NCBI GenBank assembly: GCA_963718525.1 | Contig: OY970355.1 | Span: forward strand, 224,001-288,000 | DNA from: Candidatus Dormiibacterota bacterium | GTDB taxonomy: Bacteria; Chloroflexota; Dormibacteria; Aeolococcales; Aeolococcaceae | Direction of reading: 5' to 3' | Length of the DNA: 64,000 nt | Shown: piece after piece, positions 19,452 through 57,691 of the stretch | Layout of the letters: each line of letters starts with the position of its first letter | How positions within the stretch are numbered: position 1 is the first letter of the stretch | Notes under the pieces: model-generated | Databases searched by the model: none | Told to the model about the DNA's origin: nothing | What the model saw: only the letters and a program-made list of their open reading frames with translations | Program-made: the position numbers and the translations under genes

Positions 19452-20177
19452 TTACGGGGCGCGGTCGATTGCGCCGATCCGGTCCAGGCGGTACCCGACG
19501 CCGAAGACGGTGGTGATGCGGAAGGGGATCTGGGCGAATGGCTCGAACTTCTCGCGGAGCCATCTGACATGCACGTCGACGGTCTTGGGATCCCCATAGA
19601 AGCGGTTGCCCCACACCGCCGCGATGATCGCCTGACGCGACAGCACCCGACCGTGGTTGCGCAGCAGCAACGAGAGGAGGTCGAATTCCTTCGGTGCGAG
19701 CCGGAGCTCGACGCTCTCGACGTGGATCGTGCGGGCCGCGCGGTCGATTTTGAAGCCCTCGAACTCCTCGATCTCGGGTGCGCCGGTCGGCCGTGCGCTC
19801 ATCTCCGAACGGCGAAGCAGGGCGGTGACCCGTGCAAGCAGCTCGTTGAAGGAAAAGGGTTTGGTCACGTAGTCATCGGCGCCGAGCTGCAGGCCCACGA
19901 CCTTGTCGACCTCGGATCCCTTGGCGGTGAGCATGAGGATCGGCGTCGACGATTCCTGGCGCAGCACCCGGCACACCTCCAGGCCGCTCAGGCCCGGAAG
20001 CATCACGTCGAGGAGGATCAGGTCCGGCCGCTCTGCTCGCGCGAGGCTCAGCGCGTCAGGTCCGGTCGCAGCCTCGAGGACCTGGTAGCCCTCGCGGGCG
20101 AGGTTGTAGCGCAGCGTCTCGCGTATGGCATCCTCGTCCTCGACCACGAGGATGCGTTTGGCGACGGTGGGCGCCAT
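19452..20177 (-). CDS. OmpR/PhoB-family response regulator (PhoP/RegX3-like)
   Basis: VVEDE, LLDVMLPG, LTAK, GADDYVTKPF, TVDVHVRWLREK winged helix. Confidence 0.93.
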   Translation of the reverse strand: MAPTVAKRILVVEDEDAIRETLRYNLAREGYQVLEAATGPDALSLARAERPDLILLDVMLPGLSGLEVCRVLRQESSTPILMLTAKGSEVDKVVGLQLGADDYVTKPFSFNELLARVTALLRRSEMSARPTGAPEIEEFEGFKIDRAARTIHVESVELRLAPKEFDLLSLLLRNHGRVLSRQAIIAAVWGNRFYGDPKTVDVHVRWLREKFEPFAQIPFRITTVFGVGYRLDRIGAIDRAP

Positions 20178-28427: not shown

Positions 28428-28448
28428 GTCAAAGAAAAGGAGACAGCC

Positions 28449-29486: not shown

Positions 29487-29487
29487 C

Positions 29488-30483
29488 GTGAACCCGACGC
29501 AGCGAGCGCCCGGTGCGGGTGAGGTCTTTCTCACCGGTGCGTCGGGTTTCGTGGGCGCGCACGTGCTCAGCGCGTTGCTCGCGCGTGGCTATCGCGTGCG
29601 CGCTCTGGTGCGAGGTGGCTGGGACGCGCCGGCCGGTGCCGTCGCGGTGCACGGGGATCTCCGCTCGCCCGGCGCCCTGATCACGGCGCTGCGCGGATGT
29701 GACGCCGTCGTCCACACGGCCGCCCTGTACTCGTTCGCTCCGAGCGACCGGGCAACGATCGCGGCGGTGAATGTTCGCGGCACAGCGGGAATCCTCGAGG
29801 CCGCGCGCATCGCGGGCGTCGGGCGCTGCGTCGTCACGTCGAGCTCCGCCGCGCTCGCGCCGGCGACCGCCTCGCGCCCGGCGACGGAGACCGACTGGGC
29901 CACCGCCGACCACCGAACGTGGTCGTACCACGCCTCCAAGCTCGCGGGGGAACGCGCGGCGCTGCGCGCGCCGATACCGGTGATCACCGTGTTGCCGACG
30001 GCACCGGTTGGTCCAGGCGATCGCCGGCCGACCCCCACCGGCAAGATCGTCGTCGACCTGCTTCGTGGACGCATGCCGGCAACGCTGGGCGGGGGCATGA
30101 ACATAGTGCCGGTCGAGGACGTCGCAGCGGCGCACGTTCTGGCACTCGAGCGTGGACGCCCGGGTGAACGCTATATCGCGGGCGGTGTCAACCTGACCCT
30201 GGCGGAATTGTGGCGGCTCATCTCTCGAGCGGCAGGCAGGCCGGAGCGGACGGTGCGGCTCCCCTATGCGATCGCCGCAGCCGCTGCGCGCCTCGATGCG
30301 GCTCGCGTCCGCCTGACCGGCGGGGTGCCCGCGATCCCGCTCGAAGGAGTGCGCATGGGCCGGCTCGAGATGTATTCATCGAGCGCGAAAGCCGGTGAGG
30401 AGCTTGGATACCGGCCGTCGAGCGCCGATGCGGCAATCGAGCGGGCGGTGCGCTGGTATCGCGAGAACGGCTATGCCGCCTGA
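29488..30483 (+). CDS. hpnA: Hopanoid-associated NAD-dependent epimerase/dehydratase HpnA
   Basis: TGASGFVG, YHASK, PTAPVGPGD..PTPTG. Confidence 0.88.
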   Translation: MNPTQRAPGAGEVFLTGASGFVGAHVLSALLARGYRVRALVRGGWDAPAGAVAVHGDLRSPGALITALRGCDAVVHTAALYSFAPSDRATIAAVNVRGTAGILEAARIAGVGRCVVTSSSAALAPATASRPATETDWATADHRTWSYHASKLAGERAALRAPIPVITVLPTAPVGPGDRRPTPTGKIVVDLLRGRMPATLGGGMNIVPVEDVAAAHVLALERGRPGERYIAGGVNLTLAELWRLISRAAGRPERTVRLPYAIAAAAARLDAARVRLTGGVPAIPLEGVRMGRLEMYSSSAKAGEELGYRPSSADAAIERAVRWYRENGYAA

Positions 30484-31836: not shown

Positions 31837-32460
31837 TTACGCCGGGGTCCGGTCGGGGATGGTGCGGCCGAGCGCGCGGAGCGCCCGAATGTACTTGGGG
31901 GTGCTCTCCGGCTCGCCGGAGCCGGCCGCTGCAAGTCGAGTCATTACGGCATCGATCAGGGCGTCATCGGCAGCGAAGAGTTCCATCTCGACCTCGCGGA
32001 AGGTCTCCACCACGCTGTCGCCGGAGTACACCGACACCCGATCGTCTGCCACCTCGGCACGCCGCTCGCGCTGCGCAACGAGATCGACTGTGTGGCGGTC
32101 GGTGACGAGGCGCGCGATCGGACGAAGCACGACGTCGCCAACCACCGGGCGGATCACGTCGAGGACCGACTGAGGTGGCATGTCGGGGGGCCCTGTGAAA
32201 TCGGACTCCTCGCGGGACACGGCGTGGCCCACCATCCGGCTGCCGGCCTTGAGGGTCCATTTGCCGGGCTCGCCGGGCGCGCTGCGGTGGCGCAGGCCCA
32301 AGCCGGCGCGGAGCAACGTCAGGTCGTCGGTGTCCCAATACGTTGCCGACAGCTCGACGGTGCCGCGATCCACCGCGTGCGTCCCCTCCACCACCCCGTC
32401 GAGGTCGGGAAGCACGAAGTCAGGGCCGACCGGGATCTTGATCTCGCGTTCTTCTGGCAT
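31837..32460 (-). CDS. CYTH domain protein
   Basis: EREIK (ExExK), YWDT, LRHR, WTLK, EVEME, PKY. Confidence 0.88.
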   Translation of the reverse strand: MPEEREIKIPVGPDFVLPDLDGVVEGTHAVDRGTVELSATYWDTDDLTLLRAGLGLRHRSAPGEPGKWTLKAGSRMVGHAVSREESDFTGPPDMPPQSVLDVIRPVVGDVVLRPIARLVTDRHTVDLVAQRERRAEVADDRVSVYSGDSVVETFREVEMELFAADDALIDAVMTRLAAAGSGEPESTPKYIRALRALGRTIPDRTPA

Positions 32461-36542: not shown

Positions 36543-37583
36543 CTAACCCTCGCCGCTGACGAACAGGGGGCGGAACCAACCTTCGGGATGCGGTCCCGCC
36601 GCAAGCGCGCGGCCGAGCAGCGCGTCGAGCAACTCCCGCGTGTCCATCGTCTGGACCTCGGCGCGAAGCCGCGCGGCCCCCGCGCATCCGCGGATCGTCC
36701 AGGCGACATATTTGCGGCCGATGCGCAGCGCACGCGGTTCGCCGTGGTACGCGCAGAGCATGTCGAGGTGGCGTCGAGCCAGCGCGACGCGTTCGGGAAA
36801 CTCGAGGTCGGGCAGGATCGTGCCGGTCGCGAGTCGATGGACCGCCTGGCGGACGAACCAGAAGTTGCCGAGCATGCCGCGAGCGATCACCACCCCGTCG
36901 ACCATTCCCAACTCGATGCGCCGGGCAAGGGTGTCCACGTCCTCGACATCACCGCTGCCGAACACAGGGACGCCCACCGCCTCCTTCACCCGCGCGATCT
37001 GCGCCCAGTCGGCTGCTCCCTCGTACTTCTGACAGCGGGTCCGGCCGTGCACGGTCACCGCAGCGGCCCCAACGTCCTCGAGCGCGCGGGCGAGCTCGGG
37101 GGCATTGATCGTGGACGCGTCCCAGCCTATGCGCATCTTCACGGTGACGGGGACCGGGACCGCCTCCACCATCGCCGCGACCACCCTCGAGGTCGCCCGC
37201 ACGTCGCGGGCGAGGGCGGCGCCGCTTCCCCGGCTCACCACCTTCGGGACCGGGCACCCGAGGTTGATGTCGACGAGCACCGCCCCGCGCTCGACGCAGA
37301 CCTGAGCCGCATCCGCCATCACGGCGGGATCGGATCCGACCAGCTGGGCTGCCACCGGCGAGACCCCGGCGGGGAAGTCGAGGAGATGGAGGGCTGCCTC
37401 GGTACTTCGAACCACCGCCTCGGCGGCGACCATCTCCGTGGAAACCAGCCCCGCGCCGAACTCGCGGCACAACTCCCGGCACGGGGCGTCGGTGATCCCC
37501 ACCATCGGCGCCACCAGGATCGGTGACGAGAGTTCGAGGCCGCCGATCTCGAGGGGACGGAGCGCAGTCGCAGCGAGAGCCAT
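36543..37583 (-). CDS. dusB: tRNA-dihydrouridine synthase DusB-like
   Basis: APMVGITD, DINLGCP, VTVKMRIGW, VHGRTR. Confidence 0.9.
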   Translation of the reverse strand: MALAATALRPLEIGGLELSSPILVAPMVGITDAPCRELCREFGAGLVSTEMVAAEAVVRSTEAALHLLDFPAGVSPVAAQLVGSDPAVMADAAQVCVERGAVLVDINLGCPVPKVVSRGSGAALARDVRATSRVVAAMVEAVPVPVTVKMRIGWDASTINAPELARALEDVGAAAVTVHGRTRCQKYEGAADWAQIARVKEAVGVPVFGSGDVEDVDTLARRIELGMVDGVVIARGMLGNFWFVRQAVHRLATGTILPDLEFPERVALARRHLDMLCAYHGEPRALRIGRKYVAWTIRGCAGAARLRAEVQTMDTRELLDALLGRALAAGPHPEGWFRPLFVSGEG

Positions 37584-39279: not shown

Positions 39280-40128
39280 ATGCCATCGGTCCACCTGGTG
39301 TGCGACAGCACCGCCGACCTTGACCCCGCGTTTCGCGACGCGCACACGGTCCGAGTGGTGCCGCTCAAGGTGATCTTCGGTGATCAGACCTACGCGGACG
39401 GTGTGGACATCACCGCCGGAGAGTTCTACGCCCGTCTGGCCGCGCCCGGCCCGTTTCCGCGGACCTCCCAGCCGACGCCCTCCGAGTTCGAGGAGGTCTT
39501 CCGGGAACTGGGGGCCGACGGCGTCCCCATCGTCTGCACGACCATCTCCGCCGACCTCAGCGGCACGTACGCCTCGGCAACCCAGGCACGCGCCGCGCTC
39601 CCTGAGCTCGACATCCGCGTGATCGATACCCGCAGCGTCGCGGTCGGCCATTACGCGCCCGTTCGGGAAGCGGTGCGGGTGATCGAGGCCGGCGGTGACG
39701 CCGACGCCGTCGAGGCAGCCGTCAGCGCGGTGCTCAGCACCGACAGGGTGCTCTTCACCGTCGAGACCCTCGAGTTCCTGCGCCGCGGCGGGCGCATCGG
39801 CGGCGCGCGTGCGTTGCTCGGCTCGATGCTCGATATCAAGCCGATCCTCGAGATCCGCGAGGGCGCGATCGAGGCGGTCGGGCGGGTCCGGACCTACCCG
39901 CGGGCGATCGACCGGGTCGTCGAGGAATGCAGACGAGCCGCCGACGCCTGGGGTGGCGCCGAGCTCGTCATCGCCCACGCCGACCGGCCGTCGATCGCCG
40001 CGGAGCTGGTCGAGCGGATGCGCCCGCTGGTGTCGGGCGAGCCGGCCCTGACGGTGGTCGGCCCGGTGGTCGGCTGCCACAGCGGACCTGGCGCGATCGG
40101 CGTTGGGTTCCACAAACCACTGACCTGA
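39280..40128 (+). CDS. DegV family fatty-acid-binding protein
   Basis: DSTADL, TSQP, LSGTY, LRRGGRIG, HSGPGAIG. Confidence 0.95.
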   Translation: MPSVHLVCDSTADLDPAFRDAHTVRVVPLKVIFGDQTYADGVDITAGEFYARLAAPGPFPRTSQPTPSEFEEVFRELGADGVPIVCTTISADLSGTYASATQARAALPELDIRVIDTRSVAVGHYAPVREAVRVIEAGGDADAVEAAVSAVLSTDRVLFTVETLEFLRRGGRIGGARALLGSMLDIKPILEIREGAIEAVGRVRTYPRAIDRVVEECRRAADAWGGAELVIAHADRPSIAAELVERMRPLVSGEPALTVVGPVVGCHSGPGAIGVGFHKPLT

Positions 40129-40913: not shown

Positions 40914-41693
40914 TCAACTTGCGCCGACCTGGAGTGGAGGGAGCAGTGCCACGGTCGCGCCGATCGGGCCCGGCTCCTCGCCCTCGGCGCGGCCCCAGAA
41001 GCGCGAGAAGCGACCGTCGTAGCCGACCGCGAGACCTCCGTGAAACGCGATGGGCGCCTCATCCCAATGCGGGGTATGTCCATGAACGACCCGTCGAACG
41101 CCGAAGTGCTCGAGGTAGCGCTGCAGGCGTGCGGGGTCGTCGAAGCCGTGCCGTCCGATCGTGTAGCGAAGCGACTGAAAGGCCCCGCCGCGGGTCGCGA
41201 GCCAGGCACGGACCGCGGCATTGACCTCTGCGACGGTGGCGCCGATCTCCGCATAGCGGTCGTCGTCGGTGTGCTGCGCAAGGGTCCCGTCATCGATCTC
41301 GACGAGGAAGGGGAGCGCCCGCAGCCATGCCTCCAGTTCGGCATCCGACACCACCGCGTCGAGGTCCGCCCAGTCGCCGCGGCGGCTCAGCCAGAGATCC
41401 TCGATGCTCAGCCCGTCGCGGGTGCGCCAGGCTCCGAGCTGGTCGGGACCCCGCGAGCGCTCGACCATGACGAGCAGGAAGAGATCGTGGTTGCCGAGCA
41501 CCGAGCGTGCGTTGCGGCGCTCCATGGCGAGCTTCGCGGCGGCCGCTCCGCCGCCTGCCCCGGGCTCGCCGCCCTGAAAGAAGTCACCGAGGAAGACGGT
41601 GTCGACCTGGTCCTCGGGGAAGGGCTGGAGCGCCTCTCGGAGCCGGTCGACGTCGCCCTGGACGTCGCCGACGATCAGGGTGGGCCGGGTCAC
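40914..41693 (-). CDS. Calcineurin-like metallophosphoesterase
   Basis: GDVQG, LGDFFQGG, LGNHD, VHGHTP. Confidence 0.82.
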   Translation of the reverse strand: MTRPTLIVGDVQGDVDRLREALQPFPEDQVDTVFLGDFFQGGEPGAGGGAAAAKLAMERRNARSVLGNHDLFLLVMVERSRGPDQLGAWRTRDGLSIEDLWLSRRGDWADLDAVVSDAELEAWLRALPFLVEIDDGTLAQHTDDDRYAEIGATVAEVNAAVRAWLATRGGAFQSLRYTIGRHGFDDPARLQRYLEHFGVRRVVHGHTPHWDEAPIAFHGGLAVGYDGRFSRFWGRAEGEEPGPIGATVALLPPLQVGAS

Positions 41694-41720: not shown

Positions 41721-43160
41721 TCAACCGCCAGCGGCCGCCTTGCGCGTGCGAGCCACGAGCGCGCGTGCTCTGGCGAGCTGTCTGGTCACCGACCTGGGTC
41801 CCGGCCCGCCGGGCACATCGCGGCGGCGGAGCGCCGCATCGGCATCGAAGAGATCGACCACGTCCGGGCCGAAGCGATTCGACACCGAGCGCCACTCGCT
41901 GATGTCGAGGTCAGCGAGCGTGCGGCCCTCGGCCAGTGTCCGCGCGACCACCTCCCCGACGAGGGTATGGGCTTCCCTAAAAGGCACTCCGTTGGCGACG
42001 AGGTGCTCCGCGATGTCGGTGGCCTGGAGCGCTGGATCCGATGCTGCCCGGCGCATCGCCTCCACATCGAAGTGCACGACCGTGATGACCTCGGTGAGCA
42101 ACCGCAGCGTGGCGGCCGTGGTGTCCACCGCGTCGAACAACGGCTCCTTGTCCTCCTGGAGGTCGCGGTTGTACGTGAGCGGCAAACCCTTGAGCACCGT
42201 GAGCAGTGCGACCACATCACCGATGACGCGCCCGCTTCTGCCCCGCGCAAGCTCGGCGACGTCGGCGTTCTTCTTCTGAGGCATCAGCGACGAGCCGGTA
42301 GCATGACTGTCGGGGAGGCTGACGAACCCGAACTCGACACTCGACCAGAGCACGAGCTCCTCACCGAGCCGTGAGCAGTGGACCATCGTGAGCGCGCAGG
42401 CGGATGCGATCTCGACCGCGAAATCCCTGTCGGCGACGGCGTCCATGCTGTTGGCGGCAATCCGCCCGAAGCCGAGCTCACCGGCCACGCGGTCACGGTC
42501 AAGTGGCAGCGTGGACCCCGCCAGTGCCCCGCTCCCCAGGGGAAGCTCGTCGCAGGCCAGGCGCGCCGCGCCAAGACGAAGCGCGTCGCGAGCGAACATC
42601 TCGACGTACGCCAGCAGGTGATGCGCCAGCGACACGACCTGGGCGCGCTGCAGGTGGGTATACCCCGGCATCGGTGCTGTGCGGTGCTCGGCCGCGCGTG
42701 CCGCGAGTGCCTCCTGCAGCCCGGCGAGCGCAACCAGGAGGTCCGTGCACGCGCGGCGAGCCCACATGCGCAGGTCGGTTGCAACCTGGTCATTTCGACT
42801 GCGCCCGGTGTGGAGCATTCCCGCCACGGGACCGGCGAGCTCGAAGAGCCGGCGCTCGACCGCCGTGTGGATGTCCTCGTCACCGGGCGACACCGCGAAG
42901 CCATCGCTCGACAGCTCCGCGGCGATGGCGCGCAGTCCCGCATCGATGGCGCGATGCTGCGCAGCGGTGAGCACGCCGATGCTGCGGAGCATGCGCGCGT
43001 GCGCGCGCGAGCCGGCGACGTCATCGGCGCCGAGACGGCGGTCGACGGCGAGGCTCGACGTGTACGCCTCGACCCGTTCGGACGTCGGGCCGCTCAGCCG
43101 GCCTGCCCAGACCTTGGGTTCGCGCGCTTCGCGGCGCGCCCGCCGATCAGACGTCGCCAC
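41721..43160 (-). CDS. argH: Argininosuccinate lyase
   Basis: WAGR, HTGRSRNDQ, MPGYTHLQRAQ, GSSLMPQKKN, YNRDLQEDKE. Confidence 0.97.
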   Translation of the reverse strand: MATSDRRARREAREPKVWAGRLSGPTSERVEAYTSSLAVDRRLGADDVAGSRAHARMLRSIGVLTAAQHRAIDAGLRAIAAELSSDGFAVSPGDEDIHTAVERRLFELAGPVAGMLHTGRSRNDQVATDLRMWARRACTDLLVALAGLQEALAARAAEHRTAPMPGYTHLQRAQVVSLAHHLLAYVEMFARDALRLGAARLACDELPLGSGALAGSTLPLDRDRVAGELGFGRIAANSMDAVADRDFAVEIASACALTMVHCSRLGEELVLWSSVEFGFVSLPDSHATGSSLMPQKKNADVAELARGRSGRVIGDVVALLTVLKGLPLTYNRDLQEDKEPLFDAVDTTAATLRLLTEVITVVHFDVEAMRRAASDPALQATDIAEHLVANGVPFREAHTLVGEVVARTLAEGRTLADLDISEWRSVSNRFGPDVVDLFDADAALRRRDVPGGPGPRSVTRQLARARALVARTRKAAAGG

Positions 43161-44397
43161 GCCGTTGGGTGCGCCGTTCGACGTGGAGAGGGGCCGTGTC
43201 CTCGAGCGCTCCCTGCACGCGGGTCTGGGTACGGAGCGGCAGGCCGAACAGTTCGATGAACCCACGCGCCGCTGCGTGGTCGAACGTGTCGCCGGCACGA
43301 TCGTAGGTCGCGAGGTCGTTGCTGTAGAGCGATCGCTCCGCTCGCCTGCCGATGACCTGCGCAGCGCCGTCCTGCAGACGCATCCGCACCACACCGGTCA
43401 CGTGCACCTGGGTCTCCTGCACGAACGCATCGAGCGCGGTGCGCAGCGCGGAGAACCAGAGACCGTCGTACACGAGACGCGCCCACTCGTCACCGACGAT
43501 GCGCTTGAAACGCGCGACGTCTCGCGGAATCGTGAGGCTTTCGAGCGCGTCATGGGCGGCGTGGAGCGCGACCGCCGCGGGTGCTTCATACACCTCGCGG
43601 GACTTGATGCCGACCAGACGGTTCTCCACGTGGTCGATGCGTCCGATGCCGCGTGCCCCCGCGAGGGTGTTGAGCTCCCCCACCAGCCGCTCCCCTTCGA
43701 GCCGGCGACCGTCGAGGGATACCGGAACCCCGCGCTCGAAGCCGATCTCGACGACAGCGTCTGGAGCATGGTCGTGAGCGGTCCACGCGTAGACATCGTC
43801 CGGCGGTTCGATCCAGGGGTCTTCGAGCACGCCCGTCTCGATGCTTCGTCCCCAGAGGTTCGCATCCACCGAGTACGGTGACGCCTTGGTCACCGCCACC
43901 TCGATGCCGTGCGCGGCTGCGTACTCGAGCTCCTCCGAGCGCCCCATCGCCCAATCGCGCACCGGCGCGACCACACGAAGCTCCGGGGCGAGGGCGCCGA
44001 CGGCGACGTCGAAGCGGACCTGGTCGTTGCCCTTGCCGGTGCATCCGTGCGCGACCGCACTGGCTCCTTCCTCGCGGGCCACGTCGACGAGCAGCTTGGC
44101 GATGAGCGGACGCCCCAGCGCGGTGGCAAGCGGATACACGCCCTCATAGAGCGCCCCTGCCGCAAGCGTCGGGAAACAGAAGGCGTCGACAAATACCCGG
44201 CGCGCGTCGGCGACGTGCGCGCTGAGCGCACCGGTGCGCAACGCCTTGGTCGCAACCGCATCGACATCCTTTGACTCACCGAGATCTGCGGTGAGCGTGA
44301 TCACGTCGTATCCGAGCTCTTCCTGGAGCCACCGGATGGCCACCGACGTGTCCAGGCCGCCGCTGTATGCGAGCACGCAGCGTTCGCGGGCGCTCAA
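43147..44397 (-). CDS. argG: Argininosuccinate synthase
   Basis: LAYSGGLDTS, HGCTGKGNDQVRF, ENRLVGIKSREVYE. Confidence 0.97.
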   Translation of the reverse strand: MSARERCVLAYSGGLDTSVAIRWLQEELGYDVITLTADLGESKDVDAVATKALRTGALSAHVADARRVFVDAFCFPTLAAGALYEGVYPLATALGRPLIAKLLVDVAREEGASAVAHGCTGKGNDQVRFDVAVGALAPELRVVAPVRDWAMGRSEELEYAAAHGIEVAVTKASPYSVDANLWGRSIETGVLEDPWIEPPDDVYAWTAHDHAPDAVVEIGFERGVPVSLDGRRLEGERLVGELNTLAGARGIGRIDHVENRLVGIKSREVYEAPAAVALHAAHDALESLTIPRDVARFKRIVGDEWARLVYDGLWFSALRTALDAFVQETQVHVTGVVRMRLQDGAAQVIGRRAERSLYSNDLATYDRAGDTFDHAAARGFIELFGLPLRTQTRVQGALEDTAPLHVERRTQRRGDV

Positions 44398-44891
44398 CGC
44401 ATGTCATCCGACATTGCGTTGAGGCGAAGGAGGAGGCGCTGTGCCGCCGGTCGTGACCTCGCGATCACCAGCACCGTGTCATCGCCGGCGATGGTGCCGG
44501 CAACCTCCTCGAATCGGGACGCATCGAGGGCGCCGCCCACCAGCGGCGCGCATCCCGGGGCGGTGTGCACGATGCCGAACAGGTCGACGAACTCGATGGC
44601 CTGGACGTGCTCCCGGATCGCATTGCGGAGTCGCTGCATGGTCTGCTCAACGTCGAGCTCGGCGACCGGCGCCATGTAGCGTGCCCCGGCATCATCGTGG
44701 ACACGGAGCAGACCGAGCTCGCGGATGTCACGGCTCACTGTCGCCTGCGTGACCGGGAACCGTCTGCGATGCAGCTCGGCGACGAGATCCTCCTGGGTGC
44801 GGATGACACCGCCGCGCACCAGTGCGAGGATGGCGCGGTGACGCGCGGGTTTCGCGGCCGGCCCGATCACCCGGGTCGCGCTCGCGCTCAT
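44394..44891 (-). CDS. argR: Arginine repressor
   Basis: VTQATVSRDIRELG, GTIAGDDT. Confidence 0.96.
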   Translation of the reverse strand: MSASATRVIGPAAKPARHRAILALVRGGVIRTQEDLVAELHRRRFPVTQATVSRDIRELGLLRVHDDAGARYMAPVAELDVEQTMQRLRNAIREHVQAIEFVDLFGIVHTAPGCAPLVGGALDASRFEEVAGTIAGDDTVLVIARSRPAAQRLLLRLNAMSDDMR

Positions 44892-46114
44892 ACGTCGCGG
44901 GTCGATGCTGCGACAGCATCGAACGCCCTGCCGAGGCGCAGCACGGCCTCGTCGACCTCGTCGCGGGTGATGATCAATGGCGGCACCAGCCGGAGCGTGC
45001 GTTCGCCGACCGCGTTGACGATCAATCCCTCGTTCAGCGCGGCGGCGGCAACATCACGAGCAACGTCTCTGCTCAGCGCGACGCCCAGCATGAGCCCGCG
45101 CCCCCGCACACCCGCGATCGGCGCGCCATGCTCCCCGAGTGCGTGGAGCAACTCGGCGAGGTAGTCACCGACCTCCGCCGCGTGCGCCACCAATCCCTCG
45201 CGCTGCACGGCGCGCATCACTGCAACGGCGGCTGCACATGCCAGCGGGCCACCACCGAACGTGGAACCGTGGTCACCGGGTTCGAAGACATCCGCACGCG
45301 GCGCCGCCAGGATGGCGCCGATCGGCACGCCGCCTCCGAGCGCCTTGGCGACCGTCATCACGTCCGGGGCCGCGTCCTCATGCTGGTGCGCCCACCACCT
45401 GCCGGTCCGCCCCATCCCTGTCTGGACCTCGTCAAGGATGAGCAGCACATCGCGTTCGTCGCACAGGCGGCGAATCGCCGCGAGCCTCCCCGGAGCGAGG
45501 GCGACCACACCACTCTCTCCCTCGATCGGCTCGAGCATCACCGCGCAGGTCGCGCTGTCGATCGACTGTTCGAGAGCGCCGAGGTCGTCGTACGGGACGT
45601 GGACGAAGCCCTTCGGCAGGGGTTCGAACTGCTTGCGATAGCGAGGGTTCGCGGTTGCCGCGAGCGCCCCCATGGTGCGTCCATGGAATGCGCCCTGCGC
45701 ACAGATGATCACGTGTGCGCCATCACGATGCAGCTTGCCCCACTTGCGCGCCAGCTTGATGGCACCCTCATTCGCCTCCGCACCACTGTTGCAGAAGAAC
45801 ACCCGCGAAGGGAACGCTGATGCGACCAACAGCTCGGCGAGCTCCAGCTGCGGCTCGGTGTAGTAGAGATTGCTCGTGTGCATCAGCGTTGCCGCCTGGT
45901 CGGCGATCGCCTGGCGCAACGCCGGATGGTTGTGACCGAGAACGTTCACCGCGATCCCGGCGACGAGGTCGAGAAATTCACGTCCGTCGGCATCGGTGAG
46001 CCAGACGCCGTGGCCGCTGCGCAGCGCCACCGGCTGGCGCTGATATGTGTCCATGAGCGCAGCCTTGGCGCGCGCTGCGAACGTGGTTCCCGCGGTCGTG
46101 CTGCCGGCCGTCAC
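44888..46114 (-). CDS. argD: Acetylornithine aminotransferase
   Basis: NSGAEANEGAIK, FHGRT, DEVQTGMGRTG, AKALGGG, HGSTFGG. Confidence 0.95.
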   Translation of the reverse strand: MTAGSTTAGTTFAARAKAALMDTYQRQPVALRSGHGVWLTDADGREFLDLVAGIAVNVLGHNHPALRQAIADQAATLMHTSNLYYTEPQLELAELLVASAFPSRVFFCNSGAEANEGAIKLARKWGKLHRDGAHVIICAQGAFHGRTMGALAATANPRYRKQFEPLPKGFVHVPYDDLGALEQSIDSATCAVMLEPIEGESGVVALAPGRLAAIRRLCDERDVLLILDEVQTGMGRTGRWWAHQHEDAAPDVMTVAKALGGGVPIGAILAAPRADVFEPGDHGSTFGGGPLACAAAVAVMRAVQREGLVAHAAEVGDYLAELLHALGEHGAPIAGVRGRGLMLGVALSRDVARDVAAAALNEGLIVNAVGERTLRLVPPLIITRDEVDEAVLRLGRAFDAVAASTRDV

Positions 46115-46986
46115 ACGGACTCCGAGTGGGTGAGCATGGTGCCGACGCCGCGCTCGGTGAGCAGCTCGAGGAGCAGTGCGTGCGGGACCCGCGCGTCGAT
46201 GATGTGCGTGGCGCAGCCGCCGTCGGTGGCTCTGATCGCCGCCTCGACCTTGGGGATCATGCCGTCGTGGATCACGCCGGAGGCGAGCAGCTCTCGTCCG
46301 CGCACCGCGTCAAGTTCGCTGATCAAGTCGCCGGCGCCGTCGCGAACACCTTCGACGTCGGTCATGAGGATGAGCTTGCTGGCGTCCAGCGCGACGGCGA
46401 GCTCTGCGGCGACGGTGTCGGCATTGACGTTGTACGCCTGACCGTCGTAGCCGAGACCGATCGATGCCATCACGGGGATGCGCCCCTGGTCGAGGATGGC
46501 CAGGATCGGTTCAGCGTTCACCTGCGCCACGTCACCGACGAAGCCCAGGTCGGCTCCGCTCGTATCCGACCGCGGACGCACCAGCAGCGTCGGTCCGTCC
46601 TCGCCGGAGATCCCGATCGCGCCGGCGCCGAGCGTGTGGATGCGCGCGACGATGTCGGGCCCGATCTTGCCGGTGAGGACCATCTTCGCGATCTCCATCG
46701 TCGGCGCGTCGGTGACCCGGAGCCCGTTGACGAACCGGGTCTCGATGCCCATCCGCTGCTGCCACGCGCTGATCTCCGAGCCGCCGCCGTGCACGATCAC
46801 CGGTCGCATCCCGACGAAGCGGAGGAGGACCACGTCCTCGAGCACGGCATCGAGATCCGCCACCGCGCTCGCCGCGCCCCCGACCTTGATGACGAGGATG
46901 TGACCCGCGAACCGCTTGATGTATGGCAGTGCCTCGATGAGCACCTCAGCACGATGGATCCGTTCGTCGATGGTCTGTTCAGGCAT
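46111..46986 (-). CDS. argB: Acetylglutamate kinase
   Basis: EALPYI, VHGGG, GLRVTD, NVNAD, GMIPKV. Confidence 0.96.
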   Translation of the reverse strand: MPEQTIDERIHRAEVLIEALPYIKRFAGHILVIKVGGAASAVADLDAVLEDVVLLRFVGMRPVIVHGGGSEISAWQQRMGIETRFVNGLRVTDAPTMEIAKMVLTGKIGPDIVARIHTLGAGAIGISGEDGPTLLVRPRSDTSGADLGFVGDVAQVNAEPILAILDQGRIPVMASIGLGYDGQAYNVNADTVAAELAVALDASKLILMTDVEGVRDGAGDLISELDAVRGRELLASGVIHDGMIPKVEAAIRATDGGCATHIIDARVPHALLLELLTERGVGTMLTHSESV

Positions 46987-47009
46987 GGTGGTTGTGGTGG
47001 TGCTCCGTA

Positions 47010-48239
47010 TCAGGTGGTGTAGTCGGCATTGATGCGCACGTAGTCCGCTGAGAGGTCGCAGCCCCACGCATGACCCTCGCCATCGCCCGCGCCGAGGTCG
47101 ATGTCGATGTCGAGACGTGGCAGCGAGAGCGCGGCGCGAATCCGTTCCGCTTCAACTCGCTCGGGGGCACCGCGGTCGAACACGACCAGGCCCCCGATGG
47201 CGACGCGGCAGCGGTCCAGGGTGAATGACGCACCGCTCCGGCCGAGGGCGGCCACGACGCGACCCCAGTTGGGATCGCCACCGTGGATCGCTGCCTTGAC
47301 CAGCGAGCTCTGCGCGACGACGCGCGCAGCGATGCGCGCCTGATCCGTGCCCACGGCGCGGTGCACCGCGACGCGGAAATGACGCGTTGCACCCTCGGCA
47401 TCGGCAACGAGCTGCTCCGCAAGCGAGTCACAGACCTCGAGCAGCGAACCCTCGAAGGCGGCCGCCGCACTCGATCCTTCGACGAACATCGCGCCACCCG
47501 CCGCGCCGTTGGCGAGCAGGATGCACGAGTCGTTGGTGGACGTGTCGCCGTCGACCGTGACGCAGTTGAACGTGCTGTCGGTGACGCGACGCAGTGCCCC
47601 CTGGAGCAGCGTCGATTCCACAGGTGCGTCGGTGGTGATGAACGCGAGCAGGGTCGCCATATCCGGGTGGAGCATCCCGGCACCCTTTGCGGTAGCCCCC
47701 ACGGTGTAGGTCACACCGTTACCGATGAACGTGGCCTCCGCAACCTTGGCGACCGTGTCGGTGGTCATGATCGCGCGCGCAACGTCGCCGCCCGCGTCCG
47801 GAGACATGGACAGCGCCGCAGCCCGGATGCCACGCACCACACGATCCATCGGCATCGGCCGCCCGATCACGCCGGTGCTGCACACGAGCACATCGCTTGG
47901 GTCGAGGTCGAGGCTGTCGCCGGCGGTCGTGCACATGACAAGTGCGTCGCGAAATCCCTGGCCGCCGGTGCACGCGTTGGCGTTGCCGGCGTTGACGACC
48001 ACGGCGGAGATCGGCGTGCCGCGCCGCAGTGTCAGCTGCGAGATGACCACCGGTGCCGCCTTGACGGTGTTCCGCGTGAAGACCCCCGCCGCGGTGGCGG
48101 GGGTATCGGAGCGGATCACCGCAACGTCGGTGCGCGTCTCGTCACCGTCGCCACGAATCCCCGCGGCAGCCACACCGCCGCGAAATCCGCGTGGAGCGCA
48201 GACCCCAGCTCGGGTGTGCTGCATCGCCGGTGCGCTCAC
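47010..48239 (-). CDS. argJ: Ornithine acetyltransferase ArgJ
   Basis: GNANACTG, KGAGMLHPDMAT, DGDTSTND, DPNWGR, INADYTT; GTGA overlap with the argC stop. Confidence 0.96.
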   Translation of the reverse strand: MSAPAMQHTRAGVCAPRGFRGGVAAAGIRGDGDETRTDVAVIRSDTPATAAGVFTRNTVKAAPVVISQLTLRRGTPISAVVVNAGNANACTGGQGFRDALVMCTTAGDSLDLDPSDVLVCSTGVIGRPMPMDRVVRGIRAAALSMSPDAGGDVARAIMTTDTVAKVAEATFIGNGVTYTVGATAKGAGMLHPDMATLLAFITTDAPVESTLLQGALRRVTDSTFNCVTVDGDTSTNDSCILLANGAAGGAMFVEGSSAAAAFEGSLLEVCDSLAEQLVADAEGATRHFRVAVHRAVGTDQARIAARVVAQSSLVKAAIHGGDPNWGRVVAALGRSGASFTLDRCRVAIGGLVVFDRGAPERVEAERIRAALSLPRLDIDIDLGAGDGEGHAWGCDLSADYVRINADYTT

Positions 48240-49261
48240 GGCCACAGGAAGCGTGACTCCAGGCCCGCGGTCTCGTCGAACCCGAATCGGATGTTCATCG
48301 CGTGCACCGCCTGGCCGCCACCGCCCTTGCCGAGATTGTCGATGGCGACGGTGACGACCGCCATACCGTCCTGCCAACCGGAGTTGATCGACGCGCGGTT
48401 GGTTCCGGTCATGCCCTTGGTCGGTGGCGGCGTCTCGACGTGATCGAGGAACGGGCTCGTGGCGCAAAACTCTGCGTACAGCTCATTGAAGTGCGCGTGC
48501 GTGACACCGGGAAGCGGGCGGAGATATGCGGTGACCAGGATGCCGCGCGTCATTGGGATCAGATGGGGCACGAACGTGAGCCGCACCTCACCTTCCGCGG
48601 CGAGACGCAGCTGCTCCAGCATCTCGGACTTGTGGCGATGCCCGGCAACACCATAGGCGTGCACCGACTCATTGACTTCTGCGAAGAGATTGGCAACCTT
48701 CGCCTCGCGCCCTGCGCCGCTGACGCCGCTCTTGGCATCGACCACGATGTCAGGCTCGATCAAGCCCTCGCGCAGCGCAGGGACGCATGCCAGCAGGGTG
48801 GCAGTCGGATAGCAGCCGGGCACCGAGATGAGATTCGCGCCAGGCAGACGCTCGCGCTCGAGCTCGACCATCGCGTACACCGCCTCCCCGAGCAGACCCG
48901 GCGAGGGATGCTCGATGCCATACCACTGCTGATACGCGGTGGCATCGCGGAGCCGGAAATCGGCCGAGCAGTCGATGACGGTGGCGCCGCCGGCGAGCCA
49001 CCCGGGCGCGAGCGACGCCGCGACGGTGTGGGGCAGCGCCGCCATCACCACATCCGCCGAGCCGGGGTCGAGGCCGTCCTCGATGATCAGATCGACGGAG
49101 CTCCCGGGGACCACGTCGGAGTAGCGTTTGCCGGCGCTCGTGTGCCCGAGCACGCGCGTGAGCTCCACGTCGGGATGCCCGGCGAGCAGCGCCGTGCATT
49201 GCATGCCGATGTATCCGGTGGAGCCGAAGACTGCGGCGCGGATCCGTGTCGCCTGGGCCAT
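48236..49261 (-). CDS. argC: N-acetyl-gamma-glutamyl-phosphate reductase
   Basis: GSTGYIG, SADFRL, PGCYPT, SGVSGAG, IDNLGKG. Confidence 0.96.
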   Translation of the reverse strand: MAQATRIRAAVFGSTGYIGMQCTALLAGHPDVELTRVLGHTSAGKRYSDVVPGSSVDLIIEDGLDPGSADVVMAALPHTVAASLAPGWLAGGATVIDCSADFRLRDATAYQQWYGIEHPSPGLLGEAVYAMVELERERLPGANLISVPGCYPTATLLACVPALREGLIEPDIVVDAKSGVSGAGREAKVANLFAEVNESVHAYGVAGHRHKSEMLEQLRLAAEGEVRLTFVPHLIPMTRGILVTAYLRPLPGVTHAHFNELYAEFCATSPFLDHVETPPPTKGMTGTNRASINSGWQDGMAVVTVAIDNLGKGGGGQAVHAMNIRFGFDETAGLESRFLWP

Positions 49262-53797: not shown

Positions 53798-56212
53798 CTG
53801 CTGACGCGGGATCTCATCGAGGCCTACCAGGCGACGCTTCCATTCGAGCTCGACGACTTCCAGCGCGAGGCCATCGTCAAGCTCGAGGGATCCCGCGGCG
53901 TGCTGGTGAGTGCGCCCACGTCGAGCGGCAAGACGGTGGTTGCGGACTACGTGATCTGGCGCCGCCTCGACGCGCCGGCCGCACTCCGGCGGCCGATCAC
54001 AGATGCAGCCGACGTGGTCTACACGACACCTCTGAAAGCTCTGAGCAACCAGAAATATCACGATCTCTGCGAGCGATTCGGTGAGCACCGCATCGGCCTG
54101 ATCACCGGTGAGCACACGCTCAACGATGGCGCACCGATCCTGGTGATGACCACGGAGATCCTGCGCAATGTGCTCTACGACGAGCCTGCGCGTGTCGATC
54201 GAGTCGGCGATGTGGTGCTCGACGAGGTGCACTACATCGACGACTACCCGCGCGGCACGGTGTGGGAGGAGCTGATCATCGAGGCGCCTCGCCACATTCG
54301 CCTGATCGGCCTCTCCGCAACCATCAGCAACGTCGGCGAGGTCGCGACATGGATGTCGGGCCTGCGCGGCACGATCGAGACGGTCACGAAAACCGAACGA
54401 CCGGTGGCACTCGAGATGTGGCTGGCCATCGACAACAGGTTGCACCCGCTCTTCGACAAGGCGGGCAATGCGGCGCGCGGCACGCTCGAACTTGCGCAGG
54501 CGGATGCAGTGCAGCAACCACGATTTCGCGAGGCGCGACGCGCCCCCGACAACGACATGCTGCAGATCGTCGATGTCCTGCGGCAGCGCGCGATGCTCCC
54601 CGCCATCTACTTCATCTTCTCGCGACGGGGATGCCGCGAAGCGCTTCAGCGCTGTGGTGTGCACGGAGTCGACCTCACCAGCGATGAGGAGAAGGAGCGC
54701 ATCGACATCGCCATCACCGAGCGGATGGAGGCATTGAGCGATGCGGACGAGCGACAGTGCGTGCTCCTCGAGCTCGACAGGCGCCTGCTCCGGCGCGGCC
54801 TCGCCATGCACCACGCCGGTCTGCTCCCGTATGCGAAGGAGACCGTGGAGCGCCTGTTTCAGCAGGGGTTGATCAAGGTCGTCTTCGCGACGGAGACGCT
54901 CTCACTTGGTCTCAACATGCCGGCGCGCTCCTGCGTCATCTCTTCGTTCACGAAGTTCGACGGCGTGAGTTTCGCCTCACTCACCAGCGGCGAGCTGACG
55001 CAGCTCATGGGCCGCGCTGGCAGGCGCGGCATCGACACAGTCGGGCACGGGGTGATCCTCAAGGAGAGCGACGTCGACCTGCGCGATATCTACGACGCCG
55101 CGATCTCCGGTGAGTTCGCCGTGGATTCCAAGTTCTCGCCCACCTACACGATGGTGCTCAACCTGCTGCGCACGCGGTCCGCTGAGGCCGCCGAGATGCT
55201 CCTCGACAGCTCCTTCGGGCAATACCAGGCAGTCGAGCGGTCTGCACGGTGGGAGCATCGCAGGGCCAACCTCGAAGCCGAGCTGCATGATCTCCGGCTG
55301 CGGCGCTTTCAGCACCCTCGGGTCCCGTGCACCGAGCGCACCCTGACCTCGTTCCTCACCACCACGACGCAGCTGGGTGAGGCCCAGCTCGCGCTGCGGC
55401 GCGTCAAGCGCGGGCACTGGACCGATGCGCGTCGCGGCCGGTACGGCAAGGCGGGTTCCGATCCCGGCCAGCGCTATGAGGCGTTGCGCAGGACCACCCG
55501 CTCACTCCAGGACCGGCTCAACGAGTCGCCGTGCCGCAACTGTCCGTACTTCGGCGAGCATCGCGCTCACCACCACCGCATCGCCGACATCGAAACCACC
55601 CTCGCCGGTGCCGAGGAGGAGCTGGAGCGCTCGCAGCACCGCTTTCGGCGCGAGTTCCAGGCACACCGGGCGGTGTTGCGGGCCGGGGGCTTCCTCGACG
55701 GCGACGACCCGACCGACCTCGGCCGTCTCGCCGGCTCGCTGTACGGGGAGAGCTCGCTGCTCGTTGCCGACGCGATCGCGTCCGGGCTGCTCGACGGGCT
55801 CAAGCCCGAGGAGGTCGCCGCAACCCTGGTCAGCTTGGTCGCGGAGGATCGGGGTCGGGAGCGCCCGCAACCGTCGCGACGTCACTTTCCCACTCCCCGG
55901 ATCGAGGAACGGCATCGCCGCCTCCGAACCGCGATGCGGCGCTTCGTGGAGCTCGAACGCGAACATGGGCTGGAGACGATGCCGCCGCTCTCCCTCGAGT
56001 ACATTCGCCCGGCATACGAATGGGCGACGGGCGTCCCACTCGCCGACATCGAGCCCCCACCGGGCGCCGATACCGGAGACGTTGTCAAGGCGGTGAAGAG
56101 CCTCTACTCGCTGCTGCGCCAGATGGAGCAGGCACTGCGCGGGCATGCGCTGCACCCGGTGGTCGCGCTCACCCGCGAGCGGGTCGAGCGCGACCTCATC
56201 CGCAGGATCTGA
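53798..56212 (+). CDS. Ski2/HelY-like DExH-box RNA helicase (start uncertain, possibly CTG)
   Basis: PFELDDFQREA Q-motif upstream of the first GTG (53900), APTSSGKT, TPLKALSNQKY, DEVHY, LSAT, HHAGLLP, QLMGRAGRRG, DSHCT-like C-terminus. Confidence 0.92.
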   Translation: MLTRDLIEAYQATLPFELDDFQREAIVKLEGSRGVLVSAPTSSGKTVVADYVIWRRLDAPAALRRPITDAADVVYTTPLKALSNQKYHDLCERFGEHRIGLITGEHTLNDGAPILVMTTEILRNVLYDEPARVDRVGDVVLDEVHYIDDYPRGTVWEELIIEAPRHIRLIGLSATISNVGEVATWMSGLRGTIETVTKTERPVALEMWLAIDNRLHPLFDKAGNAARGTLELAQADAVQQPRFREARRAPDNDMLQIVDVLRQRAMLPAIYFIFSRRGCREALQRCGVHGVDLTSDEEKERIDIAITERMEALSDADERQCVLLELDRRLLRRGLAMHHAGLLPYAKETVERLFQQGLIKVVFATETLSLGLNMPARSCVISSFTKFDGVSFASLTSGELTQLMGRAGRRGIDTVGHGVILKESDVDLRDIYDAAISGEFAVDSKFSPTYTMVLNLLRTRSAEAAEMLLDSSFGQYQAVERSARWEHRRANLEAELHDLRLRRFQHPRVPCTERTLTSFLTTTTQLGEAQLALRRVKRGHWTDARRGRYGKAGSDPGQRYEALRRTTRSLQDRLNESPCRNCPYFGEHRAHHHRIADIETTLAGAEEELERSQHRFRREFQAHRAVLRAGGFLDGDDPTDLGRLAGSLYGESSLLVADAIASGLLDGLKPEEVAATLVSLVAEDRGRERPQPSRRHFPTPRIEERHRRLRTAMRRFVELEREHGLETMPPLSLEYIRPAYEWATGVPLADIEPPPGADTGDVVKAVKSLYSLLRQMEQALRGHALHPVVALTRERVERDLIRRI

Positions 56213-56284
56213 CCGAGACTTCGCGTTACGGTGCAAGCGCCGTGTTGCATCGAAGCTGGGTCACCGTGTTAGCATGCCCGCACT

Positions 56285-56347
56285 GTGCTGACACCAAGAG
56301 TCGTGCTCGCAACCATGATCATGCCCCGCGGAGGTTTCCGAACGTAG
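56285..56347 (+). CDS. Putative attenuator leader peptide MLTPRVVLATMIMPRGGFRT
   Basis: GTG 9 nt after TAGCAT -10 (56270-75); the stop codon lies inside the antiterminator 5' strand. Confidence 0.55.
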   Translation: MLTPRVVLATMIMPRGGFRT

Positions 56348-56403
56348 GGGCGTACGCGCCCACGTTGGAAACCTCCCGGACCACAAGCCCGGGAGGTTTT
56401 TTT
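56330..56403 (+). terminator. Mutually exclusive antiterminator/terminator upstream of thrC
   Basis: Terminator AAACCTCCCGG/CCGGGAGGTTT plus T7 (56369-56403); alternative GGAGGTTTCCGAACGT (56330-45) pairs with ACGTTGGAAACCTCC (56362-76). Confidence 0.8.
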
Positions 56404-56404
56404 C

Positions 56405-57691
56405 ATGTCCACCATCAGTCTGCTCGAACGCTACGGTCGAGCTCCCTCGGGGGCCCACGTCGGCTGTCTGGTCTGTCGCGCCTGCGGTCACGAGACCCCG
56501 GTCGAGGCGACCAACATCTGTGACCGGTGCTTCGGCCCGCTCGAGGTTCGATACGACTACGAAGAGGTGGCGCGGCGCGTCTCACGTGAGAGCATCGCCT
56601 CGGGTCCCGCGAGCATCTGGCGGTATCGCGATCTCCTGCCTGTCGACCTCGACGCGACCGAGCCGATCACGCTGGGCGAGGGCTTCACGCCGCTGATCCA
56701 CGCGCGCAACCTCGGCGCGGAACTCGGGCTGCGCAATCTCTACCTGAAGAACGACACGCAGAACCCGACGGGGTCCTTCAAGGATCGGGTGGTGAGCGTC
56801 GCGGCCACCTGGGCGCGCGAGCACGGGCTGACCACCATCGCCTGCGCCAGCACGGGCAATCTCGCCAACTCCGTGGCGGCGTATGCGGCGCACGCCGGAC
56901 TGCGCGCCGTCGTGGTGGTGCCCAGCGACCTCGAGTCCGCCAAGATGATCGGCACGTCGATCTTCCGGCCGACGATCATTGCTGTGGACGGTAGCTACGA
57001 CGATGTCAATCGTCTGTGCACCGAGCTCGCCGACTGCGTCGACTGGGGGTTCTGCAACCTCAACCTTCGCGCCTACTACAGCGAGGGCAGCAAGACGCTG
57101 ACCTTCGAGACGGCGGAGCAGCTCGGTTGGCGGCTTCCCGACGAGATCATCGTGCCGGTCGCGTCTGGATGCCAGTTCGTCAAGCACCGCAAGGCTGCCG
57201 GCGAGTTGATCGACCTCGGCCTGGTCCAGCCGGGATCGCGTCTGCCCCGGCTCACCGGCGCCCAGGCGCTCGGCTGCTCGCCGGTCGCAACGGCGTTCGC
57301 CGGCGGCGAGACGGCCGTCGTCCCCGTGCGGCCGCACACCATCGCCCGATCGATTGCGATCGGCAACCCCTCGGATGGGGCGGACGTCCTCCGGATCGCG
57401 CGCGAGACCGGGGGCGTGGTCGCGAGCGTCACCGAGGAGGAACTGGTGGAGGGCATCGAGCTGCTGGCCGCCAGCGAGGGGATCTTCGCCGAGACGGCCG
57501 GCGGGGTCACGGTCGCCGTGCTTCGCAAGCTCGCCAGAGCCGGGCGCTGGGAGGGGGACGAGACCGTCGTCGCCTACATCACCGGTGCGGGCTTGAAAAC
57601 GGCGGAGTGCGTCGCCTCCAGGGCTGAGACGCTCACGCCCGTGCCGGCGTCGCTCCGAGCAGTCCGGGAGCGATACGCCGGTCTGTTCTGA
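56405..57691 (+). CDS. thrC: Threonine synthase family PLP enzyme with N-terminal Zn-ribbon
   Basis: CRAC...CDRC, NPTGSFKDR, CASTGN, EGSKT, TGAGLKT. Confidence 0.88.
   Translation: MSTISLLERYGRAPSGAHVGCLVCRACGHETPVEATNICDRCFGPLEVRYDYEEVARRVSRESIASGPASIWRYRDLLPVDLDATEPITLGEGFTPLIHARNLGAELGLRNLYLKNDTQNPTGSFKDRVVSVAATWAREHGLTTIACASTGNLANSVAAYAAHAGLRAVVVVPSDLESAKMIGTSIFRPTIIAVDGSYDDVNRLCTELADCVDWGFCNLNLRAYYSEGSKTLTFETAEQLGWRLPDEIIVPVASGCQFVKHRKAAGELIDLGLVQPGSRLPRLTGAQALGCSPVATAFAGGETAVVPVRPHTIARSIAIGNPSDGADVLRIARETGGVVASVTEEELVEGIELLAASEGIFAETAGGVTVAVLRKLARAGRWEGDETVVAYITGAGLKTAECVASRAETLTPVPASLRAVRERYAGLF

Follow-up and report, generated by a model that had tools for sequence, protein, structure and literature searches.

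The 64-kb stretch of contig OY970355.1 from a Candidatus Dormiibacterota bacterium that was analysed here (hereafter the window, from whose first base positions are counted) contains a gap of 192 nt between a helicase gene and a gene for a pyridoxal phosphate (PLP) enzyme annotated as threonine synthase (thrC). The gap was examined as a leader region, in which a promoter element is followed by a short open reading frame (ORF) and by overlapping hairpins that end directly before the enzyme gene (Table 1). An orthologous leader was found at one related locus, called L001.

Table 1. Features of the leader region and of the two genes that flank it
Feature	Position	Strand	Remarks
Upstream gene, Ski2/HelY-like helicase	53900-56212	+	DEAD, Helicase_C and DSHCT domains
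Extended -10, TGTTAGCAT (TGnTAGCAT)	56267-56275	+	TAGCAT at 56270-75, preceded by TGT
Leader ORF, 20 codons and TAG, MLTPRVVLATMIMPRGGFRT	56285-56347	+	GTG start; Shine-Dalgarno sequence (SD) absent
Putative sensing codons ATG ATC ATG (Met-Ile-Met)	56315-56323	+	M-x-M kept in L001
Candidate 1:2 ('protector' or pause) hairpin	56321-56353	+	From second Met codon to 6 nt past stop; encloses antiterminator 5' strand
Antiterminator hairpin (2:3)	56326-56379	+	-38.1 kcal/mol, z -6.4, 0/200 shuffles as good
Intrinsic terminator (3:4)	56368-56403	+	12-bp stem, 9-nt loop, U7; -21.0 kcal/mol, z -4.25, 0/200 shuffles as good
SD GGAGG of enzyme gene	56392-56396	+	Within terminator 3' arm, 8 nt ahead of ATG 56405
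Enzyme gene	56405-57691	+	428-aa PLP enzyme with N-terminal 4-Cys Zn ribbon; Pfam PALP; C24, C27, C39 and C42 invariant

Anatomy of the leader region

The GTG codon of the leader ORF lies 9 nt past the extended -10, and the predicted transcript would be leaderless or carry a leader of about 3 nt. The organism appears to use leaderless starts often, because a TAnnnT box starting 12-14 nt before the start codon (a gap of 6-8 nt) was found at 7 of the 46 window ORFs against 0.88 expected from other offsets; this suggests leaderless mRNAs at about 15% of the window genes. Such a box, 6-8 nt ahead of the start and with the SD absent, precedes the genes at 19452-20177(-), 20237-21304(+), 31837-32460(-) and 36543-37583(-), and the same spacing, again with the SD absent, is seen at 39280-40128(+), 40914-41693(-) and 48236-49261(-). 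A frame open over 20 codons is not significant by itself in DNA of 67% G+C, as estimated from base composition. The M-x-M arrangement is rare, with 4 occurrences per 15,536 residues in the 46 window ORFs, where Met makes up 1.7% of residues.

The arms of the terminator, GAAACCTCCCGG (56368-79) and CCGGGAGGTTTT (56389-56400), are followed by 7 T's. In the antiterminator, 56330-39 pairs with 56367-76, 56341-45 with 56362-66 and 56348-52 with 56357-61. Its 5' strand holds the last six sense codons of the leader ORF together with the stop codon (56345-47), and its 3' strand includes the 5' arm of the terminator, so that the two folds are mutually exclusive. Pairing between the upstream leader and this arm reaches -23.9 kcal/mol against a shuffle mean of -10.0 (0/2000 as good), and the 18-nt block of the 5' arm occurs a single time in the window (expected 0.02). 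The candidate 1:2 hairpin (-16.5 kcal/mol, z -2.1, 3/200 shuffles as good) is the minimum free energy (MFE) structure of nascent prefixes ending at 56354-56366.

A consensus promoter and terminator scanner found 0 promoter-like and 0 terminator-like sites between 55000 and 58500, with no -35 match. Its rules admit loops of 3-8 nt and require a two-hexamer promoter match; it is silent on the leader element because the terminator loop has 9 nt and the two-hexamer rule excludes the promoter. The Rfam search of the whole window at gathering thresholds returned 3 tRNAs and nothing else, and at E<=1 over 55900-56800 the sole match was SorX (E 0.96), which is sub-threshold and lies on the terminator shape. 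At that sensitivity the two scans therefore rule out SAM (S-adenosylmethionine) riboswitch classes, the T-box and the Thr leader.

An earlier note on this DNA had described the TAGCAT box, the near-leaderless 20-codon ORF, a strong terminator burying the SD of the enzyme gene and a competing stem that takes up the 5' arm of the terminator and is overlapped by the last codons and the stop, and had compared this geometry with classical attenuation. The box and the ORF can be read directly from the sequence, both folds stand out from shuffled sequences, the SD does lie in the terminator stem, and the near-leaderless start recurs in L001. The comparison with classical attenuation is supported; to the mutually exclusive stems and the ORF end within the antiterminator 5' strand, the candidate 1:2 hairpin can now be added. 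The exclusion of SAM, T-box and Thr-leader models by Rfam, which that note had suggested, gave the result stated above.

A second leader at a related locus

Homologous loci were collected by a scan of genome contigs, in which 80 were kept out of at least 600 stretches. Among the matches listed, four loci are titled Dormibacterota or Dormibacter (L001, L003, L014 and L031), and few close relatives are in the set. L002 is titled Candidatus Solibacter, yet it groups by enzyme and context with the Dormibacterota loci; likewise L016, titled Acidobacteria, groups with Acidimicrobiia, which suggests binning or label problems. In the protein database, relatives of the window type amount to at least 120 protein clusters with an identity of 69% or above, several of them on contigs longer than 0.5 Mb; the best of these relatives show 69-95% identity, and the named ones are proteins of Candidatus Dormibacteraeota/Dormibacteria or of Chloroflexi metagenome-assembled genomes (MAGs).

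L001 is a 5.2-kb piece of a Dormibacterota MAG with the same helicase upstream and an enzyme 72% identical to that of the window. Further copies of the leader motif were found neither within the window nor among the other 79 loci. Mis-called ORFs spanning the leader were sought in the protein database via a 48-aa antisense ORF, and the alignment of both leader peptides was used as a query against the same database; neither search gave a candidate. The comparison of leaders thus rests on two sequences (n=2) related by descent.

The L001 promoter, TGCTAGCAT, is identical to the extended -10 of the window at 8/9 positions, while its flanks are 60-65% identical with indels. The L001 leader ORF, MHANAVARTASMLMRRGGFRT, has 21 codons, and its ATG stands 7 nt past its -10. 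The frame is open in both leaders (20 vs 21 codons) despite indels and ends on the same stop codon. From Met1 to the stop, 30/33 nt are identical; the codon that separates the Mets (ATC/TTG) and the one that follows them (CCC/CGC) account for all 3 differences. The codon preceding Met1 also differs (ACC in the window, TCG in L001), so that the L001 peptide reads ...TASMLMRRGGFRT, with Ser for Thr and Leu for Ile and with both Met codons kept. The distance from ATG TTG ATG to the antiterminator in L001 equals that in the window. Identity falls to 65%, with indels, in the part of the ORF before Met1, and to 60% over the first 60 nt of the enzyme coding sequence.

Downstream of the ORF, the terminator 5' arm is conserved at 10/12 positions and the 3' arm with the T run at 16/16 window bases, compared with 3/9 in the loop. 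In L001 the antiterminator reaches -39.6 kcal/mol (z -4.9) and the terminator -23.4 kcal/mol (z -4.42), and the L001 leader pairs with the terminator 5' arm at -22.5 kcal/mol (0/2000 shuffles as good). The counterpart of the 1:2 hairpin is the MFE structure of L001 prefixes ending at 2894-2912 (-16.7 kcal/mol, z -1.5, 20/200 shuffles as good), in a register that differs from that of the window. In both sequences the hairpin is only weakly better than shuffles, and the evidence for it is no more than suggestive. Taken as sequence, the conservation is patchy in the way that a functional switch would predict. The support for the Met codons as conserved, correctly placed regulatory codons is thin, at 2/2 leaders.

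Could the ORF be fortuitous, and the hairpins an undescribed riboswitch platform (for SAM, Met or homocysteine, for example) or the target of an RNA-binding protein or small RNA? The homologues do carry a SAM riboswitch at the same place, as described below, an open frame of 20 codons is not significant at this G+C content, and the 5' strand is perfectly conserved in nucleotides. Against this, no Rfam family, with all its SAM classes included, matches at E<=1, and only about 45 nt separate the likely start from the antiterminator. Aptamers are normally the most conserved part of a riboswitch, whereas these 45 nt are the least conserved stretch (65%), with indels that shift the register of a GCTCGCA block shared by both leaders. 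The promoter also stands directly ahead of the start codon in both sequences. Such an origin of the hairpins is accordingly regarded as improbable.

The enzyme gene and its regulatory context

Hasebe et al. in 2024 are reportedly the primary source of the MetM/MetO route. In the parts of the literature that describe it, the metM-metO unit combines a SAM riboswitch with genes for a 'threonine synthase' and for a carrier of the ThiS type, and serves to form homocysteine from O-phosphohomoserine (PMC13759103, Table 2; PMC12172450); in the supplements of PMC13759103 no text on MetM was found. A SAM riboswitch lies upstream of Streptomyces albulus metM according to the discussion of PMC12172450, and ahead of 'threonine biosynthesis' genes in a table for S. 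lividans (PMC8079986).

The window enzyme scores 264.6 bits with the thrC model TIGR00260 (cut-off 167.1) and 298.3 bits with NF006050 (cut-off 303). Both models probably fail to separate MetM from ThrC, because metO-linked homologues are annotated as threonine synthase too, for instance in the S. lividans table (PMC8079986) and as thrC of M. aeruginosa in the text of PMC12172450. A maximum-likelihood tree of 76 rows was built, from which L019, L031, L032, L041 and L060 were left out as partial or truncated (the metM-like frame of L019 is interrupted by a stop after 287 aa). The window and L001 group together with a Shimodaira-Hasegawa-like support (SH-aLRT) of 97, are joined by L002 and L003 (100), and fall inside a 28-row clade (99). 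SAM-I lies directly upstream in 24 of the 26 other members of this clade, and the remaining two are L002 and L003. Like most of the 24 SAM-I rows, L002 and L003 have a ThiS-family gene immediately downstream of the enzyme gene. Such an arrangement matches the metM-metO unit of the literature.

The scan with the SAM-I model (RF00162) covered 40 of the 80 loci, the 40 outside it being mostly archaeal, and placed SAM-I directly upstream at 17/20 and 9/20 loci, or 26 of the 40 scanned. A ThiS-family gene, whose product ends in ...AVAGG, follows the enzyme gene at 31/80 loci, all in the 28-row clade or its archaeal sister. The motif AIGNPxDG is common to the window, L001 and the clade, in contrast to the RIGNPxxW-like motifs of most of the more distant homologues, which lack an adjacent metO. 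By clade and SAM/metO context, the gene is probably that of a MetM-like homocysteine synthase, and the thrC label is probably a mis-annotation inherited from the names of hidden Markov models. This assignment is made by clade, context and motif.

A role of the enzyme in the Met pathway also fits a Met-reading leader at the position where the relatives carry a SAM sensor. That a leader peptide can take the place of a riboswitch or T-box before orthologous genes has been documented (PMC2965389). Within the phylum, SAM-riboswitch, leader-peptide and leaderless or unregulated versions all occur, since L014, the window with L001, and L002 with L003 differ in this respect. L014 (Dormibacter sp.) has SAM-I and an intrinsic terminator at 2822-3000 before the homologue, with the adjacent metO absent. 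L002, L003 and L031 are Dormibacterota-like loci without the leader; in L002 (4293-4812), L003 (4216-4750) and L031 (669-1281) the metM-like gene and the ThiS-family gene are followed by a stand-alone NIL-domain gene of about 80 aa, for which no match was found in the Actinomycetota loci.

A tblastn search with the MetO-like protein of L003 found no metO-like gene in the 64-kb window, L001, L014 or L026, although a copy elsewhere in the genome is possible. At 106 alignment columns, at least 30 of the other 31 members of the clade agree; the window and L001 both deviate at exactly two of these columns, namely E26A in the Zn ribbon and Y327D. These positions co-vary among 28 Dormibacterota-type relatives: 22 have A/G with D/E, 4 have E with Y, 1 has S with F, and 1 is misaligned. 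E26 stands in the context CRECG and Y327 in DGxY, and the change coincides with the loss of adjacent metO in the loci examined. Residues 26 and 327 may mark a carrier-binding contact, and from their co-variation the window-type enzyme may work without MetO or in a different manner. A true ThrC function of the window-type enzyme is possible.

The earlier note had proposed that a Thr-Met-Ile-Met cluster could sense three aspartate-family end products, and that the Zn-ribbon 'ThrC' might serve Met and sulfur metabolism. The second proposal has gained ground, since members of the clade carry SAM-I, an adjacent ThiS-family metO-like gene or both, and it is the gene name thrC itself that now looks doubtful. 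The first is not supported: of the T/M/I cluster expected in relatives, the Met codons are conserved in L001, the only orthologous leader in the set, and the Thr and Ile codons are not. With Ser in place of Thr and Leu in place of Ile, a triple sensor is unsupported and a Met sensor is supported. It is very improbable that the cluster reads Thr, Met and Ile together before a true ThrC, or before a ThrC that competes with a separate MetM for O-phosphohomoserine. The TIGR00260 score above cut-off, the absence of metO nearby and the two otherwise invariant, co-varying positions at which window-type proteins differ from metO-linked ones would agree with it; yet runs of Thr or Ile and a Thr_leader match are absent, and the protein nests in the SAM-riboswitch/metO clade with AIGNPxDG rather than the RIGNPxxW-like motif. 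By analogy with plants, moreover, a ThrC induced when Met is short would use up the common precursor, a response in the wrong direction.

Proposed mode of action and known counterparts

In the folding of nascent prefixes, the 1:2 hairpin appears first and is followed by the antiterminator once 56367-79 has been made, before the terminator 3' arm exists. In the window as in L001, the terminator fold and the antiterminator fold lie within about 3 kcal/mol of each other and are thus nearly isoenergetic. Since the folds are so close in energy and the antiterminator is the early MFE structure, the outcome would be kinetic and could be set by the ribosome. When the window sequence is masked to +8, the probability of the terminator, P(terminator), is 0.03 with the A site at Met1 and 0.45 at Met2, rises to 0.86 one codon past Met2, and reaches 1.00 at the stop codon; M-x-M thus contains the last codons that leave the main antiterminator helix outside the mask.

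On balance, the element is probably a ribosome-mediated leader-peptide transcription attenuator tuned to methionine, placed before the gene of a MetM-like homocysteine synthase that carries a threonine synthase annotation. Transcription would start a few bases past the extended -10, and the 20-codon ORF would be translated leaderless or nearly so. With Met-tRNA plentiful, the ribosome would cross the antiterminator 5' strand to the stop codon and block the antiterminator; the terminator would then form, hide the SD of the enzyme gene and end transcription just ahead of the start codon. With Met-tRNA scarce, the ribosome would stall at M-x-M, block the 1:2 hairpin and leave the main helix (from 56330) free, and the free antiterminator would capture the terminator 5' arm, so that RNA polymerase reads on and the SD is exposed. 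Because the terminator 3' arm contains the SD, a transcript that has been read through would also be open to translation only when it adopts the antiterminator fold. Readthrough on Met starvation is the classical expectation and fits the MetM/SAM context of the gene. The leader element would thereby do the job that the SAM-I riboswitch does before homologues of the gene in Actinomycetota and in one further genome of the Dormibacterota.

Another possibility is a translation-coupled attenuator without amino-acid specificity, in which any ribosome that translates the short ORF opens the antiterminator and so brings about termination, and slowed or absent translation allows readthrough; such an element would respond to the general capacity for translation, or to leaderless initiation, instead of methionine. 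Upstream of Met1 there is no stable structure that would impose termination on early stalling or in the absence of ribosomes, and in the ribosome-free window the antiterminator is the MFE structure, with P(terminator) 0.05. There are also just two Met codons, and the codons preceding them are unconserved. On the other side, both ATG codons are kept while three neighbouring codons change, M-x-M is rare in the window proteins, and the SAM control of homologous genes lets a Met-related signal be expected. The 1:2 hairpin and the terminator-favouring equilibrium of L001 would moreover terminate transcription without translation. Attenuation of this non-specific kind seems unlikely, if slightly less so than the riboswitch platform considered above.

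Several points weigh against the methionine-tuned attenuator. The candidate start is a GTG without an SD, placed by its distance from a -10 at which the scanner sees no promoter, and the leader ORF has only two Met codons. The two leaders are kin, and statistical covariation of the stems is unsupported at n=2. Met2 AUG sits in the candidate 1:2 helix of the window, so part of its conservation could be structural; likewise, the identical 5' strand (encoding RGGFRT*) is explained by RNA pairing and is silent on translation. L002 and L003, which come next in relatedness (enzyme 63-66% identical), lack any leader, and their genes start 5-6 nt after a TAnnnT box. With regard to the enzyme, TIGR00260 scores above its cut-off, a metO-like gene is absent from the window (64 kb) and from L001 (5.2 kb), and with E26A and Y327D at otherwise invariant positions it may not be an orthodox MetM. 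Finally, Met2 lies 9 nt from the main helix, and under masks the size of a ribosome footprint (+11 to +14) the equilibrium favours the terminator at a Met stall in the window (P 0.65-0.95); in L001 the full-length MFE structure is the terminator fold, ribosome present or not. As equilibrium folding favours the terminator in L001 and under wide masks, the direction of regulation rests on kinetic reasoning and not on calculation.

Enterobacterial attenuators such as trpL, thrL and hisL consist of a short ORF with its regulatory codons at the 5' edge of the first hairpin, and two regulatory codons suffice in trpL. The window element likewise has its putative regulatory codons at the edge of a candidate first hairpin, a stop codon placed to block the antiterminator, and mutually exclusive antiterminator and terminator. 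It differs from them in the absence of sequence or covariance-model similarity, in having Met codons instead of Thr, Ile, Trp or His codons, in an ORF that lacks an SD and starts at or within about 3 nt of the predicted 5' end, in a terminator 3' arm that doubles as SD, and in its host, the uncultured phylum Dormibacterota. In its proposed working the element is like a trpL-type attenuator, and its sequence is unlike any known one.

Among described systems, the leaderless leader peptides known from Actinobacteria come closest. As presented in PMC8079986, S. lividans trpL1, leuL1/2, ilvL and a predicted metL before metNIQ are leaderless ORFs of 12-29 codons, enriched in cognate codons and followed by hairpins. 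The window element shares the short, predicted leaderless ORF and the hairpins with them, and a Met-responsive metL (...CMCRRMCAF) is proposed in the same source. That metL is described there as a one-genome prediction with Met and Cys mixed, which precedes a transporter and for which a clear intrinsic terminator is absent; the window element, in contrast, has a full terminator/antiterminator pair before a biosynthetic gene, and the two show no sequence similarity. In the literature searched, this predicted metL was the only Met-codon leader peptide found.

In mycobacteria, a quarter of mRNAs are said to be leaderless and to begin with AUG or GUG, and polycysteine leaderless short ORFs (the 'Cys ribulon') were tested experimentally, according to the text of 10.1101/834739. 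As in that system, the window element has a putative leaderless sensory ORF in which stalling on sulfur-amino-acid codons would prevent a structure that sequesters the ribosome-binding site (RBS). The Cys ribulon as reported there acts on translation only, through the RBS and runs of Cys codons, whereas the window has two Met codons and a helix that is also a terminator. SAM-I before metM-metO occupies the same genomic position and presumably has the same output, being off when the Met/SAM supply is good; unlike it, the window lacks an aptamer, and the signal would be charged tRNA sensed via the ribosome rather than SAM sensed via RNA. The window enzyme resembles MetM as a ThrC-fold PLP enzyme in a clade with downstream ThiS-family carriers and upstream SAM riboswitches. 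It differs from the MetM unit in that the window and L001 lack an adjacent carrier gene and carry E26A and Y327D, and its activity as homocysteine synthase is predicted from this context.

Elsewhere in the window, a hopanoid-type cluster at 21386-30483 (+) comprises genes for a polyprenyl synthase, a squalene/phytoene synthase, an amine-oxidase-like flavoprotein, a squalene-hopene cyclase, a radical-SAM/DUF3463 protein and an epimerase. An arginine biosynthesis cluster at 41721-49261 (-), with an embedded gene for the ArgR repressor, encodes argininosuccinate lyase and synthase, an acetylornithine aminotransferase-like protein, an amino-acid kinase and a semialdehyde dehydrogenase. The ThiG ORF at 17269-18291 (-) has about 74 extra N-terminal residues with no Pfam match at 1e-5, and this extension could reflect a wrongly called start or a small domain fused to the protein.

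By textbook accounts, methionine genes are controlled by SAM riboswitches, T-boxes and protein repressors. If the proposed reading is true, ribosome-mediated attenuation can read Met and can stand in for a SAM riboswitch before an orthologous gene, and a phylum that has yet to be cultured makes use of leaderless sensory ORFs. Many proteins annotated as threonine synthase in Dormibacterota and Actinomycetota resemble homocysteine synthases of the MetM type, and correcting their annotation to MetM-type changes the reconstruction of the Met and Thr pathways in such MAGs. A bolder and rather doubtful extension is that a Dormibacterota lineage swapped the SAM riboswitch for a Met-reading leader, which would be the first among Met-specific leader-peptide attenuators to have a full terminator/antiterminator switch, and that its enzyme was also uncoupled from MetO, with the adjacent gene lost and E26/Y327 changed to A/G26 with D/E327. 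If that uncoupling is true, the window-type enzyme would be a MetM variant that takes its sulfur from a different donor.

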